Shown piece by piece: positions 12,895 to 21,109 of a stretch of 37,749 nt of DNA (the first letter of the stretch is position 1; every line of letters starts with the position of its first letter). The position numbers and the translations under genes are program-made. The notes under the pieces are model-generated. The model searched no databases, had not been told where the DNA came from, and saw only the letters and a program-made list of their open reading frames with translations. Source of the stretch: Branchiostoma belcheri (taxonomy: Eukaryota); the NCBI RefSeq assembly GCF_001625305.1, contig NW_017803490.1:8113914-8151662 (forward strand), written 5' to 3'.

Positions 12895-13350
12895 ATGGAG
12901 TCTAAATCCCTCCTGCTATAAAATTGCAACATGATGTAACCCAACACTAGTTACCATGGTGACAGACGTCTGGTTCAGGTCATTGACCTTATTTCTTTGC
13001 AGAAGAAGAGGAAGAAGAATCAGAGGAAAAACAATATGTTTTCCTTCTGAGAAAAACAGAGATGGTAAACATAAAAATGTTTTTACCAAGAGAGAAACGC
13101 CTCTTCATCTCCTGACACAGCCTGGTCAGGGTAGCTGAGATGTCTGTGGAGTTTGTATTAGTGTTGGTGTTGGTGTTTTGGGACATTCACTTCTTTTGGG
13201 ACATTCCTCTCTTTTTCCTCAGAGTCTGTTTCTATCTTCTTCTGCAAACAAATAAGGTCAATGACCTGAACCAGACGTCTGTCACCGATGGTAACTAGTG
13301 TTGGGTTACATCATGTTGCAATTTTATAGCAGGAGGGATTTAGACTTCTG
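12895..13350. repeat. Inverted pair of R2 repeats flanking a partial duplicate of the P-loop exon 3' end (pseudo-exon at about 13050..13186)
   Basis: 12905..13000 is the reverse complement of 13255..13350. Minus ORF 12989..13186 reads STDISATLTRLCQEMKRRFSLGKNI, which copies exon 13472..13677 (STDISVTLTRLCQEMKRRFSLGKDI) including its GTAAAG donor. Confidence 0.55.
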
Positions 13351-13471
13351 TCACCATATATGTGAATGTGTTTGAGTAAGAATGGGTAGATTCAGGTGCG
13401 GTACTAGAGGAAGGGAACTCTCCTTGGTGAAGGCAGTTGACAGGTTAAAAAAAACAAAACAATATCTTTAC

Positions 13472-13677
13472 CAAGGGAAAAGCGTCTCTTCATCTCCTGA
13501 CACAGTCTGGTCAGAGTAACTGAGATGTCCGTGGAGTTCGGAGCTGCACCTACGAAGTGTGTCAGAACACAGTCAGGAGCTGAGCAGCTGTCTGAGTCCA
13601 GGTACTGCTGCACCAGTCTGGCACACAGGGACGTCTTACCACTGCCTGACTTTCCCACAACCACCAGGGTACCATTC
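13472..13677 (-). CDS. TEP1: TEP1-like exon, NACHT P-loop (NGTLVVVGKSGSGKTSLCARLVQQYLDSDSCSAPDCVLTHFVGAAPNSTDISVTLTRLCQEMKRRFSL)
   Basis: Walker A GKSGSGKT in minus ORF 13404..13664. Acceptor ccccatcag| and donor TTG|GTAAAG. Confidence 0.8.
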
Positions 13678-14178
13678 CTGATGGGGAGGACAATGTATTA
13701 AGTCAATATTTGACAATTTTAAGATCAGTTATTTGAAAGTTTTTCTAGGTGCGTCATACAAAATAATCTTCATCAACAAAGATTTTTATTATTACTTTTC
13801 TGACACTTAGATGTCAAGAATATGCTGACTATATATGAGATAGTAAAATATACTGTAACATTTAATATCATTACAATCATAACATTATGTAAACCTTAGA
13901 AAATATTTGGATGCACAGATGCACCCACATAAAAAAAAATTGGGTGCACAGCTCCAAATTTCGGTGCACTAATGAAGGTACACATACCAGTATTTGAGCC
14001 CTGTATAAAAGTTTTTATTTGTAAGAATAAAGAGAAGAGAGAGTGGCAGACAGCAATTGTGACTACTTGAGTCAATCTGCATAATAATTATATAATGAAG
14101 ACTTTATTAACAAGAAACTTCAGCTCTTGTTAAGTATTGTCTAAGTGCAAATGCCTGACTACATCTAAGAAAACTTAC

Positions 14179-14319
14179 TTGCAGAGAGAGATCTCGGCGG
14201 CACACTGCTTGAGGAGTTTGTCCCTTCCCACAAACCTCTCTGCCTCCTGCTGCACGAAGGCCTGGTGAAGACCAGTCTCACCCCCGCTGGCATCAGTGGA
14301 CTCTTCCAGAGGGAACTCC
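14179..14319 (-). CDS. TEP1: TEP1-like exon preceding NACHT (EFPLEESTDASGGETGLHQAFVQQEAERFVGRDKLLKQCAAEISLC)
   Basis: Acceptor tgttgttctag| at 14321-14320 and donor CAA|GTAAGT at 14178-14177; phases fit both neighbouring exons. Confidence 0.7.
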
Positions 14320-14332
14320 CTAGAACAACAGT

Positions 14333-14556
14333 ACAGGGAACTGCAGTTAGACACCTGGGAACTGCAGTTAGATACCCAAGAACTGCAGTTAGATACCCGG
14401 GAACTGCAGTCAGATACCCAGGAACTGCAGTTAGATACCCGGGAACTGCAGTTAGATACCCAGGAACTGCAGTTAGATACCCAGGAACTGCAGTTAGATA
14501 CCCGGGAACTGCAGTTAGATACCCAGGAACTGCAGTTAGATACCCAGTTATCATGA
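14333..14556. repeat. Minisatellite, 21-bp unit (g)gaactgcagttagatacccrg, about 10.5 copies
   Basis: Direct tandem repeats abutting the acceptor of exon 14179..14319. The unit is 7 codons and open in both listed ORFs (14165..14554 minus; 14265..14573 and 14296..14556 plus). Confidence 0.85.
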
Positions 14557-14775
14557 TTCTTTTTATTTACTAGTGTCAGTGGTAAATATTTATTTATATT
14601 ATAGGATTTACCACATTTGTGGAGGGATTTACCACATTTGTGGAATGATTGACATTATAGGTGACTATGACCTCTTTGAGATGTCAACCCTGTCAACCCC
14701 TATCACACTAATATGTGCAAACTTTCCAAGTGTTCAGCTGCTAATTATGCATAACAAAGGACCTTTACAACTTAC

Positions 14776-15100
14776 CTGACCACGGCATTCCACAGATTGT
14801 TCAGCACCCTCATTCCGAACTCTTCCAGCCCGGACACCATCGCCTTCCCATCATCCATCACTCCGGCAAAGGCACATGGGTACCCATCATGCACTTCCAG
14901 CCCGCTTCTGCGAATCCTGCTCTTCAGTTTCTCCATCTTTTCCTTTGAAGAGGAAGACTCGGAGAGAAAACTGTCTCTCAGCTTCCCCGACACATCGCTC
15001 TCGAAGGAAGGGTCGCGGAAGTAGAAGAAAGCTCTGCCCTGTGCAGCTGATGGGTCGGCGAGTGCCGCGTGGTGGATTTCTAGTTCTGTCATCGACCGGC
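14776..15100 (-). CDS. TEP1: TEP1-like exon, DUF4062 C-terminal part (GRSMTELEIHHAALADPSAAQGRAFFYFRDPSFESDVSGKLRDSFLSE...GYPCAFAGVMDDGKAMVSGLEEFGMRVLNNLWNAVV)
   Basis: Minus ORF 14772..15110. Acceptor attgatttcag| and donor CAG|GTAAGT. Parallels human TEP1 ...[58 protein letters not shown]. Confidence 0.75.
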
Positions 15101-15504
15101 CTGAAATCAATAGAAGTCAAGCTGTTAAAATACCTTGCTACTTCATTTCTATTCTACAAATATATTCTGTATCTGCTTCAGTGAAGAAAACCAAAAGTTG
15201 TCACTAATGATATCTTGGGTGTCGCTTCAGAACGGGTTAGTTGAACGATCTTCAAGATTGGCGCTCACACGTTCTGACAGGCACTCCGCATGAACTTGGA
15301 AAGTTGCCCAAATTCTGTCCTTCATAGAAATCAAAAGATTGTAAAATATGATTGGTAAATATTTTCTGGCCAAATCTTGTCAACCGTGTGGAGAGACAGC
15401 CTTTCTCGGTGCCCCATATACAATGTATGGCACCCTGGGAGTGCCATCATAGCATGTTTCTTGTGCACTTTTGATGCTGTGTGGCACGCTTACATAGTTC
15501 ACAA

Positions 15505-15640
15505 CTCACCTGCTGGATATGACTTCAGCCAATCAAACTCTGGCGCATCTGGAGTGACGTAGCTGTCTGGTACCCAGCCGCACTGCTCTCCCAGCATACC
15601 GAGGAAGTACTGGCAGCGCGAAACTTCGCTCACACTCTGA
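15505..15640 (-). other. Diverged partial duplicate of the DUF4062 exon 3' half with intact GTGAGT donor (pseudo-exon or alternative exon)
   Basis: Reads CQSVSEVSRCQYFLGMLGEQCGWVPDSYVTPDAPEFDWLKSYPA, compared with exon 15752..15957 LSEVSRCQFFLGILGERYGWVPDSYVVPDSPEFDWLKSYPA. Same donor context cag|gtgagtt; an upstream in-frame TGA truncates it, and a possible acceptor gtgtgtcag| is present. Confidence 0.45.
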
Positions 15641-15751
15641 CACACTCACTCAATTATCTCAATATTTAGCGTCTGTTGTCCCCATCTTCTTGCACAGCAA
15701 TACAGCCACTTGCCTCTACTGGCTATACGTATGCATGTAATATTAACTCAC

Positions 15752-15957
15752 CTGCTGGGTATGACTTCAACCAGTCAAACTCCGGCGAATCTGGCACGAC
15801 GTAGCTATCCGGTACCCAGCCGTACCGCTCTCCCAGAATCCCGAGGAAGAACTGGCAGCGGGAAACCTCGCTCAGACAGATCTCGAGGGACTTCTCACTA
15901 CGAGACTCTTCCTCTGTGATGCCCCACCGCAGGTCAACCTCATGGATGTGCACAAAC
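15752..15957 (-). CDS. TEP1: TEP1-like exon, DUF4062 core (FVHIHEVDLRWGITEEESRSEKSLEICLSEVSRCQFFLGILGERYGWVPDSYVVPDSPEFDWLKSYPA)
   Basis: Minus ORF 15723..15953; matches human [42 protein letters not shown]. Acceptor ttactgcag| and donor CAG|GTGAGT. Confidence 0.75.
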
Positions 15958-16515: not shown

Positions 16516-17332
16516 CTGGGGGAAAAGATATAAAAATATTAATTTAAGAATTAAAAGAACTCTTACTGCTAAAGTTTATCTTCACAAAAAGAAAACATGT
16601 TGTTTTTGCTCAGTCTCGAGCAGTTTCTTCTTCTTCCATTCCAAAGTCAATGATGACCCGGACCGTGGACCAGACATCTGTCACCATGGCAACTGGTGCT
16701 GTAGGAGACACCCTGTGGTGTTGGGTTACATTATGTAGCAGAAAAGAGAAGCGTGTTTTATTCAGGACTTTGCTTTATCCAGAACAGTTACTGTACTTTA
16801 TCCATAACCATATGTGGTAAAAATAATTATAGTAAATAAACGTTCTTGGATACACAGAGAGTATCCAGAACTGTGCCTGATCCTAAGACCCTAACCCATT
16901 CAGGGTCAGCTACAAGCTCAACCTTTTGTTGTGAACAACAGTTTAAACCCTTAGTGTTTTCATTTATCTACAATGATACACAGAGCCTACACACCTGCAG
17001 TAGTCTGCAGTTCCTCCACAGCTGCAGCAGATGTTGAGACAGCTGCGGTAGGGACAGGCTTCAGGCTGTAAGCCTGGTCAATGTTCTCTACATGAGTCAA
17101 TGCTCTATCCAGAACCATGCTCTATCCAGAACAGTGCTTTATTCTATGTTCTTGGATATACAGAGAGCATTCAGAATTATGCATGATGATCCTTACTCCA
17201 ACCCATTCAGGCATAGAACTAGATAGGCTGCAAGCTGCAACTTTCTGTTGTAAACAATAGTTTATACCCTTAGTGTTTTCATCTATTTACAATGATACAC
17301 AAGTAAGTACAATGATGACAGAATCTACAAAC

Positions 17333-17469
17333 CTGCAGTAGTCTGCAGTTCCTCCACAGCTGCAGCAGATTTTGAGACAGCTGCGGTAGGGACAGGCTTC
17401 AGGCTGTAAGCCTGGTCAATGTTCTCTACGTGAGTCAGCTGGGCTCCACTCCCTCTCTCTGCTATAAAC
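17333..17469 (-). CDS. TEP1: TEP1-like exon, end of TROVE/vWA-like region (FIAERGSGAQLTHVENIDQAYSLKPVPTAAVSKSAAAVEELQTTA)
   Basis: Minus ORF 17325..17624; matches human ILKFIAEHGASHLLEHVGQMDKIF. Acceptor cttttcccacacag| and donor GCAG|GTTTGT. Partial copies at 16985..17100 and 17625..17690. Confidence 0.65.
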
Positions 17470-18088
17470 CTGTGTGGGAAAAGATCACTATTTGTAAGTC
17501 TGCAGGAACAGAAGTATTGTTTTGTATTTTGTCTCATCAGCTGTAGGTTTGTTTGTATCTTTGTCCAGACAGAGTAGGATAACAGCACAGAGTGGAAGGC
17601 TGACATAAAAAGAAGCCTGGTCAATGTTCTCTACATGAGTCAGCTGGGCTCCACTCCCTCTCTCTGCTATAAACCTGGGTGGGAAAAGAATACAATGTCA
17701 TGTTGTACATGATTGTTACTAAGTAAACTAAGTTTGTGAATTTTTACTTCACTGTACATCTGTGAAAAATTCCAGCCAAACTGAAAATGCTGCTAAACCA
17801 CAGGAATACAAAGCTGGAATTGTGAATTAACGGTAGTACCAAGGAGGTTTTTTATCGATCCGGTACATGCTGCACTGCACTGAGTTCTAGAGTTCCATGG
17901 AGCTTCGGCAGCCTGGGTGCCATCCTCTGTAGTTACCACCGACTCCCTATTGTCAGTAGCTACCATGGACTACGGAGGACGGCACCCAAACAAGAGGCTT
18001 GGAGGACAGTTTTTTTTTTTCGAACAGGTGAAAATCAATGCGCATGCGGATGTCATCCATAAAATTAAATCAGTGCATGTGGCCTTAC

Positions 18089-19744: not shown

Positions 19745-20075
19745 AAAAATTGTACAGCTCTAGGTTTGAATAAGTTATAGTACCCTGGCAAATTTTGGTA
19801 TTTTGTAGGTATGTATTACATAAGATGGCTAGAATTCACACCAGTCCTACAGTAACTGTTCTAGGTTTGCCTAAGTTTATAGTAACTGTTGTACCCTGGC
19901 AGATATTGGTATTTGGTAGGTATGTATTGTATGAGATGACTTGAGTTCACACGCACAGTTCTAGGTCTGCCTAAGTTTATAGTAAGTTGTACCCTGGCAA
20001 ATTTAGGTACACATGTACTAGTATATGCTAAGGTATGTATTGAGATGGCTAGAATTCACACGCACAGTTCTAGGT
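19745..20075. repeat. Tandem repeat, about 100-bp unit x3-4, intronic, each unit containing a copy of the donor junction of exon 20066..20246
   Basis: Repeated ttcacacgcacagttctaggt(t/c)tgcc(t)aagtttatagtaa...ccctggcaaat(t)ttggta units; the last unit overlaps the true exon end (cctagaact|gtgcgtg). Confidence 0.65.
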
Positions 20076-20246
20076 TTGCCGAGCCCCCGCGCTGCGGTAC
20101 AGGGCGTCTCCATCTGGTCGTTCATCGCCATGGTGATGGCCGTTGTCCCCCTGATCGGCGCGACGTTGTAGCAAGTTGCGATCTTCACGGCTGTGTCGAG
20201 CGCCGTCCGGTAACGGTTCAGGAGAGCAAGGTCGTACTTCAGACCC
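20066..20246 (-). CDS. TEP1: TEP1-like exon, TROVE (GLKYDLALLNRYRTALDTAVKIATCYNVAPIRGTTAITMAMNDQMETPCTAARGLGKPRT)
   Basis: Minus ORF 20018..20281; matches human KYDGEMLNRYRQALETAV and Ro60 [22 protein letters not shown]. Acceptor cccactcccag| and donor ACT|GTGCGT. Confidence 0.65.
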
Positions 20247-20399
20247 CTGGGAGTGGGGCAAGTGGACAAGTTTAGTATCAAAGCTTCCTATCTGTGTACC
20301 TTCCTCATTCAAAACAATCATCAAAGACAGACTAGAAAAAGGAAACGGACACAAACACGATTAAAAAGAATTGGTAGTACAAGTAAGTTGAAGAATGAC

Positions 20400-20760
20400 A
20401 TATAATAATTGCGTACTCGAACCTCTAACACACACATATACACACGCACGCACGCACGCACACACACTTGTGTGCACACACACACACACATACGCACACA
20501 CACACACATGCATACATAAACACACACACACACGCAAACGCATGCACACGCACACATACAAATGCGCACACAAAGACACGCAAGCACACACACATGCACA
20601 CACACACACACACAGACAGAAACACACAAACATACACACAAATACGCACACAAACACATGCACGCATACATATAGACACAAAGACACACACTCACCTACA
20701 TGTGTACATACACATAAATACGCACGCACGCACGCACGCATATACACACACACATACACT
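20400..20760. repeat. Imperfect (CA)n/(CACG)n microsatellite, about 360 bp
   Basis: Direct reading shows cacacacgcacgcacacacacatgcaca throughout; it produces spurious long ORFs on both strands. Confidence 0.9.
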
Positions 20761-20763
20761 TAC

Positions 20764-20941
20764 ATGTGTGCATTGGTGTTCTTAGCCGAAGGGTCAGAAG
20801 ACAGTGCAGCCTTGAAGTTCATCCCCCTCCCTCCTCCTCTTCCTCCTCCTCTTCCACCCCTGCCCCTGCCACGCCCACTGCCACGCCCACCACCACGCCC
20901 TCTTCCTCGACCATGCCCACTCTGAGGCAGAACTCCAGATT
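20764..20941 (-). CDS. TEP1: TEP1-like exon encoding an RG/RGG-rich segment (SGVLPQSGHGRGRGRGGGRGSGRGRGRGGRGGGRGGGRGMNFKAALSSDPSAKNTNAH)
   Basis: Acceptor ttcttacag| at 20943-20942 and donor CACAT|GTAAGT at 20763-20762. Length 178 nt restores the reading frame between exons 22314..22514 and 20066..20246; the only open frame across the CT-rich tract is this one. Confidence 0.5.
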
Positions 20942-21109
20942 CTGTAAGAAGAATATAAATTAGCCAAATTTTGGCGTCCCTAAACCATAAAATGTAACAA
21001 CATCAATTCCAATGTCTGAATCCTGTTTTCGAATTTTTAATGCACGCAATTAGGACAAAACGCGTTCAAATCCTTCTATGGAAGCCAGGCCAAACAGCAA
21101 AGTACAGTA

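Follow-up and report, generated by a model that had tools for sequence, protein, structure and literature searches.

An RG-rich exon in the TEP1-like gene of Branchiostoma belcheri encodes a linker, predicted to be disordered, from the TROVE HEAT ring to the vWA domain

Ro60 is the prototype of the TROVE proteins, and in the human protein the connection from the HEAT ring to the vWA domain is short, fewer than 20 residues, and is not known to be rich in RG dipeptides. RGG/RG motifs are disordered elements that bind RNA and serve as substrates of protein arginine methyltransferases (PRMTs). FUS, hnRNP U, FMRP, nucleolin and fibrillarin are RNA-binding proteins that carry such motifs, also known as GAR boxes. 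The definition of the Tri-RGG and Tri-RG classes reportedly goes back to Thandapani et al. in 2013. The TROVE region of TEP1 binds to vault RNA and to telomerase RNA, with a specificity that is limited, as 10.64898/2026.09.21.753143 restates, and preprints of 2026 describe the DUF4062 region of the protein as a TIR-like NADase within a STAND architecture that the TROVE/vWA region may regulate. A search of a literature library found no paper that links TEP1 with RGG motifs.

The stretch of DNA analysed here, the window, comprises 37,749 nucleotides from Branchiostoma belcheri, and all coordinates given are window positions. A TEP1-like gene lies on the minus strand. The 2718-residue protein XP_078576926.1, a RefSeq prediction from B. 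floridae x B. japonicum, matches the window in tblastn as collinear minus-strand exons that cover residues 1-2215 and run from position 28723 to about 420, a stretch taken to include the DUF4062/TIR-like, NACHT and WD40 regions. Three exons concern us, labelled A, R and B in the order of transcription; a slash marks a splice junction. Exon A (22514..22314, 201 nt) ends ...GCA GCA G/gtactag in phase 1, with one nucleotide left over, and its product, (D)HKKLPFMAML...FPFRFFSAYEVLNQLEKDLTAA, forms the HEAT helices that close the TROVE ring. For exon B (20246..20066, 181 nt) the entry phase is 2, its first base being codon position 3, and the exit phase 0; its product, GLKYDLALLNRYRTALDTAVKIATCYNVAPIRGTT..., provides the helix and the strand with which the vWA domain opens. 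Exon R (20941..20764, 178 nt) lies between the two, with phase 1 at its entry and phase 2 at its exit, and codes for (E)SGVLPQSGHG, an RG core and MNFKAALSSDPSAKNTNAH(M), which together would make up a disordered linker from the TROVE HEAT ring to the vWA domain.

Exon R has canonical AG/GT sites and keeps the reading frame. The 3′ splice region (20942..20970 on the minus strand) reads aatttggctaatttatattcttcttacag/, a pyrimidine-rich tract followed by AG. The acceptor itself is atattcttcttacag/ (ttcttacag/), with 79% pyrimidine over bases -17 to -4 and C at -3. The donor is /gtaagtgt and the 5′ splice site, GTAAGT at 20758..20763, contains an in-frame TAA so that the RG frame closes right at the end of the exon. 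Only one minus-strand frame is open through the 178 nt; the other two hold stops. Joined in order, exons A, R and B translate without a stop as ...FPFRFFSAYEVLNQLEKDLTAA-ESGVLPQSGHGRGRGRGGGRGSGRGRGRGGRGGGRGGGRGMNFKAALSSDPSAKNTNAHM-GLKYDLALLNRYRTALDTAVK... (TAA-ESGVLPQSGHGRGRGRGGGRGSGRGRGRGGRGGGRGGGRGMNFKAALSSDPSAKNTNAHM-GLKYD). A direct join of A to B shifts the frame and runs into an immediate stop codon, and exon R therefore cannot be an optional cassette. The boundaries, acceptor, donor, single open frame and in-frame join given in the first-pass annotation agree with the sequence, and XP_078576926.1 has the same boundaries.

That annotation had also argued that the segment fixes the phase exactly. 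Exon R does restore the frame, but the property is not rare, since the A-to-B intron (22313..20247, 2,067 nt) contains a further 186 open segments, 30-450 nt long and bounded by AG..GT, that do likewise, and phase repair is thus weak as evidence by itself. When frame-restoring segments are ranked with a crude splice-signal score exon R comes second, behind an 85-nt segment in a microsatellite. It is the only one of them found to have homologues elsewhere. That exon R is more than a chance segment is shown by cross-species sequence conservation, not by the phase argument.

The microsatellite, of (TG)n/(GCGT)n type and about 340 nt long (20428-20764), begins at the exon R donor (GTAAGTGTATGTGTGTG...). 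It generates a long His/Thr-rich pseudo-ORF on the plus strand (20395..20925). This frame and a second plus-strand ORF (20766..20963) were considered as genes and rejected, being His/Thr- and Pro-rich antisense read-through of the microsatellite and the RG run. A plus-strand low-complexity ORF had been reported as the only one listed here; the listing also includes a minus-strand ORF of 57 residues (20794..20967) that uses a different frame. It omits the RG frame only because no ATG, GTG or TTG lies upstream in that frame.

The RG core (20918..20823, minus strand) reads GHGRGRGRGGGRGSGRGRGRGGRGGGRGGGRG, 32 residues consisting of 10 Arg, 20 Gly, one His and one Ser. It contains 10 RG dipeptides and four RGG triplets, and the segment RGGRGGGRGG fits the Tri-RGG pattern, taken as RGG(X0-4)RGG(X0-4)RGG, which bears out the assignment of an RG/RGG motif in the first-pass annotation. 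Arginine is specified by four codons (AGA, CGT, AGG and CGA) drawn from both codon families, glycine by all four of its codons, and the DNA of the core holds only two short arrays with a 12-nt period. The repeat is thus far purer as protein than as DNA. The core is followed by a non-repeat tail (20822..20764), MNFKAALSSDPSAKNTNAH(M), that is conserved between Branchiostoma species.

A spliced model of the window gene, built by hand from 12 exons with exon R included, gives 634 residues from TROVE through vWA. It aligns end-to-end with residues 313-940 of XP_078576926.1 at 89% identity with two gaps. Exon A is 94% identical to residues 566-634 of that protein and exon B 87% identical to residues 690-750. 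Between them the congener reads ...EKDLTAA/ESGEPLQSGRGRGRGRGGGRGGGRGRGRGRGRRGGMSFKAALTSDPSAKNTNAHM/GLKYDLPLL... and so carries exon R with identical boundaries. In the tail 18 of 20 residues are identical (tblastn 20822..20763, 90%, E 1.6e-5). Conservation of the tail at about 90% equals that of the protein as a whole (89%), which indicates purifying selection on a coding exon. The two species share the RG core as well as the tail; the window core is four residues longer (32 as opposed to 28), and the flank ahead of it reads ESGVLPQSGHG in the window as opposed to ESGEPLQSGRG.

A second newer model, P0221, is a 505-residue B. floridae RefSeq entry named 'telomerase protein component 1-like', 88% identical to the window protein and carrying PF13271 (DUF4062) and PF19334. 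It starts at a Met within exon R, MSFKAALTSDQSAKNTNAHMGLKYD, and crosses the same junction from the exon R donor to exon B (MSFKAALTSDQSAKNTNAHM/GLKYD); 17 of the 20 tail residues are identical. In both of these Branchiostoma sequences the gene, the exon and its boundaries (TAA/ESG ... NAHM/GLKYD) are those of the window. Exon R is already in RefSeq models of congeners and is not a new discovery of gene structure.

The best match to the spliced window protein is a different B. floridae entry, P0107 (XP_002596572.1, C3Z4J5), which aligns in two blocks at 93% and 87% identity and shares a 90% cluster with XP_078576926.1. This model, from 2008, does not include exon R and reads ...FPFRFFSA/GLKYD.... 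At about residues 570-580 it loses the Tyr of the SAY motif, invariant in our alignment, together with EVLNQLEKDLTAA; besides the Tyr, 13 residues of the last HEAT helix are gone. The skipping of exon R in this model is probably an annotation error. Our own assessment, drawn from sequence comparison, is that exon R is nearly certain to be real, a constitutive coding exon of the Branchiostoma TEP1 orthologue with the boundaries 20941..20764.

Many exons of the window gene are followed, a short way on, by partial tandem copies of their own 3′ ends and the intron starts (21908-22419, 23332-23537, 16919-17696, 15503-15877, 13067-13538 and 19760-19952). There are three occurrences of the 3′ half of exon A (a 202-nt unit, 2.6 copies, 88% matches) and other pairs are 78-98% identical. 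The second copy of exon A is open and reads KLTDEGAV, like the B. floridae protein, the copy in the real exon reading KLMDDGAV. The intronic copies were rejected as alternative exons, as copy 3 has stops and copy 2 is out of frame from the exon A donor. The tandem copies may reflect genuine local duplication, or they may be spurious and stem from assembly of a highly heterozygous genome. Retrotransposon fragments on the gene strand, identified by eye, occupy TEP1 introns at 21190-21900 and 26578-27216. The first includes an ORF like the C-terminal tail of a LINE ORF2 (21393..21653) with a (AAATAAAC)n tail near 21171-21197; the second (26578..27216) holds a 212-residue ORF that resembles a reverse-transcriptase fragment. 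Between the TEP1 exons matched at 14778-15104 and 14178-14318 lies a minisatellite of about 10 copies of a 21-nt unit, with up to 95% identity (14294-14587), which on the minus strand reads as the 7-residue repeat YLTAVPG. An Rfam search returned no RNA family match anywhere in the window.

Where does exon R fall in the fold? The peptide translated from exons A, R and B gives a single match to the Pfam TROVE family (PF05731, E 5.6e-27; score 95 bits, cut-off 23) that covers residues 2-159 and runs across exon R, and the placement of this exon in the TROVE region of a TEP1-like gene, made in the first-pass annotation, therefore stands. An AlphaFold2 model of the 634-residue TROVE-vWA segment, calculated with 90 homologues, has a mean pLDDT of 87.1 and a pTM of 0.84. 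A Foldseek search of the PDB with this model returned Ro60 or TROVE structures as all of the top 13 matches (including 9kop, 9l5y, 9nep, 2nvo and 1yvp), with E values from 9e-14 to 4e-9. The predicted fold has the same HEAT ring and vWA domain as Ro60 (PDB codes 1yvp, 9nep and 2nvo). A PDB sequence-profile search with the A-R-B alignment gave only spurious low-complexity matches (E >0.1) and no Ro60, so that the link to Ro60 needed the fold search.

In the model a helix at residues 302-323 ends with exon A, and exon B supplies a helix (388-408) and a strand (413-422). Exon R corresponds to residues 324-382, and no secondary structure is assigned at 324-379. The only long stretch of low confidence, pLDDT <50 at residues 332-371, consists of the RG core and the nine residues MNFKAALSS. 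Since the end of exon A coincides with the end of a helix, the next helix and the first vWA strand begin in exon B, and nothing structured falls between, exon R is predicted to encode the entire disordered connection from the HEAT ring to the vWA domain. The low pLDDT is a prediction of disorder and says nothing on RNA contact. Lys-, Glu- and Asp-rich sequence (KDKKTQKKKDDKKEDKDQPK...SEGGENEEE) makes up a second stretch of low complexity, encoded at about 25282-25300 and 24560-24625, corresponding to model residues 135-175. It spans the E3/E4 junction inside the TROVE ring and includes the only other low-confidence segment (pLDDT <50 at 157-164).

A protein search with exons A and B retrieved mostly exon-sized ORFs on eukaryotic contigs in metagenome and Logan assemblies. 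The DNA around seven such ORFs was compared, one of them (L003) being a near-identical shorter copy of another (L002); the loci L001-L003 and L005-L008 are 47-58% identical to every named protein. Six (L001, L002, L005, L006, L007 and L008) have an RG-rich frame on the coding strand between the homologues of exon A and exon B. In five of these the RG exon has AG/GT sites, an entry phase of 1 and an exit phase of 2, with lengths of 163 (L001), 157 (L002), 163 (L005), 121 (L006) and 151 nt (L008), all of them 1 mod 3 like the 178 nt of the window exon. L007 has its RG region divided between two exons, and there the RG exon is in phase 1 at both ends. Homologues of exon A are 201 nt long wherever complete (L001, L002, L005 and L006), those of exon B 181-184 nt. 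An ORF on a 1-kb contig, P0018, reads from an upstream exon through exon A to ...AGRGRGGKRGGRGGRGGGSKRGG, an RGG run reached without an intron.

Several relatives have in common with the window exon the motifs SGV and GHG before the RG run and DP(S/T)K after it. The 'DPS.K' of the window tail resembles the '(K/R)DP(S/T)K(A/P)P' tail of L002 and L008. Two bivalve proteins, Mizuhopecten yessoensis XP_021378535.1 and Solemya velum KAL5022413.1, likewise have an RG-rich run between FPFRFFSAYEVL and YD..L..RY.KALD. Both of them, and also L001, L002, L007 and L008, open the linker with a segment of the type '(I/L)(I/V)(D/E)AA.AAT', unlike the amphioxus exon, and the bivalve and L007 linkers add a WW..KKK tail. 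The A-to-B intron of the window was searched for the '(I/L)(I/V)(D/E)AA.AAT' segment as a hidden micro-exon and it is absent there; the best score was 18, in a LINE ORF, against a median of 16 and a maximum of 25 for shuffled introns.

Two features of these loci call for a comment on assembly and history. In the exon B homologue of L001 (10739-10920) an A5 run contains a surplus A and the frame is broken, on a contig with 5x coverage, and this is probably a homopolymer assembly error, not the mark of a pseudogene. L004 (5263-6700; ENA ERZ25069580, contig ctg104839) holds an intron-less copy of TEP1 with an in-frame stop and frame shifts, cut off beside integrase and reverse-transcriptase ORFs. 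It looks like a processed pseudogene and preserves a spliced mRNA whose linker is Lys-rich (...ERAKKDGVTQSRGQARKKRLSKTAEKKYKKQ...).

Full-length TEP1 proteins were obtained by a profile search of a representative library, and the linker was surveyed in the 98 TEP1-type sequences in which both anchor motifs were found. Its median length is 60 residues and its median net charge +4. The charge is positive in 76 of the 98 linkers, Lys outnumbers Arg in 69, and only seven have at least six RG/GR dipeptides. The highest counts of these dipeptides belong to the Branchiostoma protein and the window (20 each), Solemya velum (15) and Mizuhopecten yessoensis (11), with unnamed sequences and an amoebozoan transcript next in rank. 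Basic linkers of non-RG type occur in Mya, Lytechinus, Anneissia, Priapulus and one vertebrate-like fragment. Partial shark and snake linkers are also basic and non-RG as far as the sequences extend, and the linker is the same in isoforms X1 and X2 of Lytechinus. Vertebrate and echinoderm linkers occupy the same position in the TROVE module, are of similar length (about 55-87 residues) and are net positive; unlike that of the window they owe their charge to Lys and Arg, in which they are rich, and have at most a few RG dipeptides, and those of vertebrates contain hydrophobic, probably helical stretches such as ...IPVIYEQLKWEKLK....

These comparisons alter the picture drawn in the first-pass annotation. 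Its view of vertebrate TEP1 as basic and non-RGG at this position holds for shark, snake and the vertebrate-like fragment. The alignment of TEP1 orthologues that it proposed as a check recovers the RG segment in congeners, in six invertebrate loci and in bivalves. The exon can hardly be called inserted, for nearly every TEP1 homologue has a linker of some 60 residues, usually basic, at the exon R position. Nor can it be described as a lineage-specific module, given a same-phase exon in six loci outside amphioxus and RG-rich linkers in Mizuhopecten, Solemya and the amoebozoan transcript. Across the sequences surveyed the conserved feature is a basic, predicted disordered linker, and RG chemistry is a recurrent variant of it, most lineages having a Lys-rich one. 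Amphioxus is special in composition, being the most RG-rich of the sequences compared, and not in having the segment.

What might such a linker do? Our preferred reading, to which we would assign a probability of about 0.6, is that exon R provides the TEP1 linker joining ring to vWA, its RGG box acting as a cationic, RNA-contacting and probably methylated tether. The RG linker would act as a flexible tether, positively charged and adjacent to the RNA-binding ring, that may add RNA contacts of low specificity in the manner of RGG boxes elsewhere; by the same analogy it is probably a substrate of arginine methyltransferases. The amphioxus segment would then be the local version of the basic linker that almost all TEP1 homologues possess. 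This reading is drawn from the linker position and disorder, from the conserved positive charge, and from general knowledge of RGG boxes and of RNA binding by the TEP1 TROVE region. The boxes of FUS, hnRNP U, FMRP, nucleolin and fibrillarin resemble that of the window, which combines a Tri-RGG motif with predicted disorder next to a folded RNA-binding domain. There they form terminal tails beside RRM or KH domains, whereas the window box would be an interdomain linker in a TROVE-vWA protein, for which we infer RNA binding and methylation.

The excess of Lys over Arg in 69 of the 98 linkers argues that nothing specific to RGG need be required at this position. The main alternative, possible if somewhat doubtful, is that the exon is real and the RG run neutral filler driven by slippage, in a linker that need only be long, flexible and perhaps mildly basic. 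Repeats of GGN, CGN and AGR codons expand and contract by replication slippage, the core contains 12-nt arrays, the run differs in length among Branchiostoma (32 and 28 residues) and AlphaFold2 shows no structure in it. Linker composition varies widely, from K-rich through mixed to RG-rich, and the RG-rich type is patchy at seven of 98. Composition is not free, however, as the net positive charge is kept in 76 of the linkers. The use of Arg codons from both families, with the repeat purer in protein than in DNA, also speaks against filler, as does the presence in distant lineages, by new origin or by retention, of RG-rich linkers in this place beside the RNA-binding ring.

A role for the RG box mainly at the protein level is, in our judgement, unlikely. 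RGG boxes in other proteins engage in methylation-dependent Tudor interactions, transportin-type import and condensates and take part in regulation, and here the regulated activity would be that of the TIR-like NADase or NACHT. The suggestion of the 2026 preprints that the TROVE/vWA region may regulate the TEP1 NADase lends this some weight. Nothing in the present analysis points specifically to such roles, though, and the RG segment lies inside the RNA-binding module, distant in sequence from the NADase domain.

A more far-reaching reading, which we regard as improbable and offer as speculation, starts from recent work that raises the possibility of regulation of the TROVE/vWA region by RNA. 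It makes the RG box of amphioxus and certain molluscs a lineage-tuned, methylation-switchable part of an RNA-sensing input, one that shifts the RNA ligands of the TROVE ring (G-rich or structured RNAs, for instance) and hence the firing of the NADase. Were this true, the repeated occurrence of RG linkers would reflect selection on ligand range and not drift.

That the segment is no exon at all, but a chance open frame in a GGN-rich patch of intron with A and B bridged in some other way, as in the 2008 model, is very improbable: XP_002596572.1 does lack the segment and the intron does hold 186 frame-restoring alternatives, but in that model the invariant Tyr of SAY is missing along with the end of the last HEAT helix, two more recent RefSeq models take in exon R or its donor junction, the tail is 90% conserved between species, RG exons with matching phases occur in six loci, and P0018 reads from exon A into an RGG run without an intron.

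Exon R is a clean case of a low-complexity exon missed by an older gene model, and short RG exons are easily missed by gene predictors; XP_002596572.1 patched the frame by shortening a conserved helix. The linker from the TEP1 ring to the vWA domain changes its chemistry across animals, being Lys-rich in some and of RGG type in others. If the linker helps in the capture of RNA, the TEP1 proteins of amphioxus and bivalves would be natural tests of an RGG box placed on a Ro60-like ring, and they could also show whether RNA input tunes the NADase activity.
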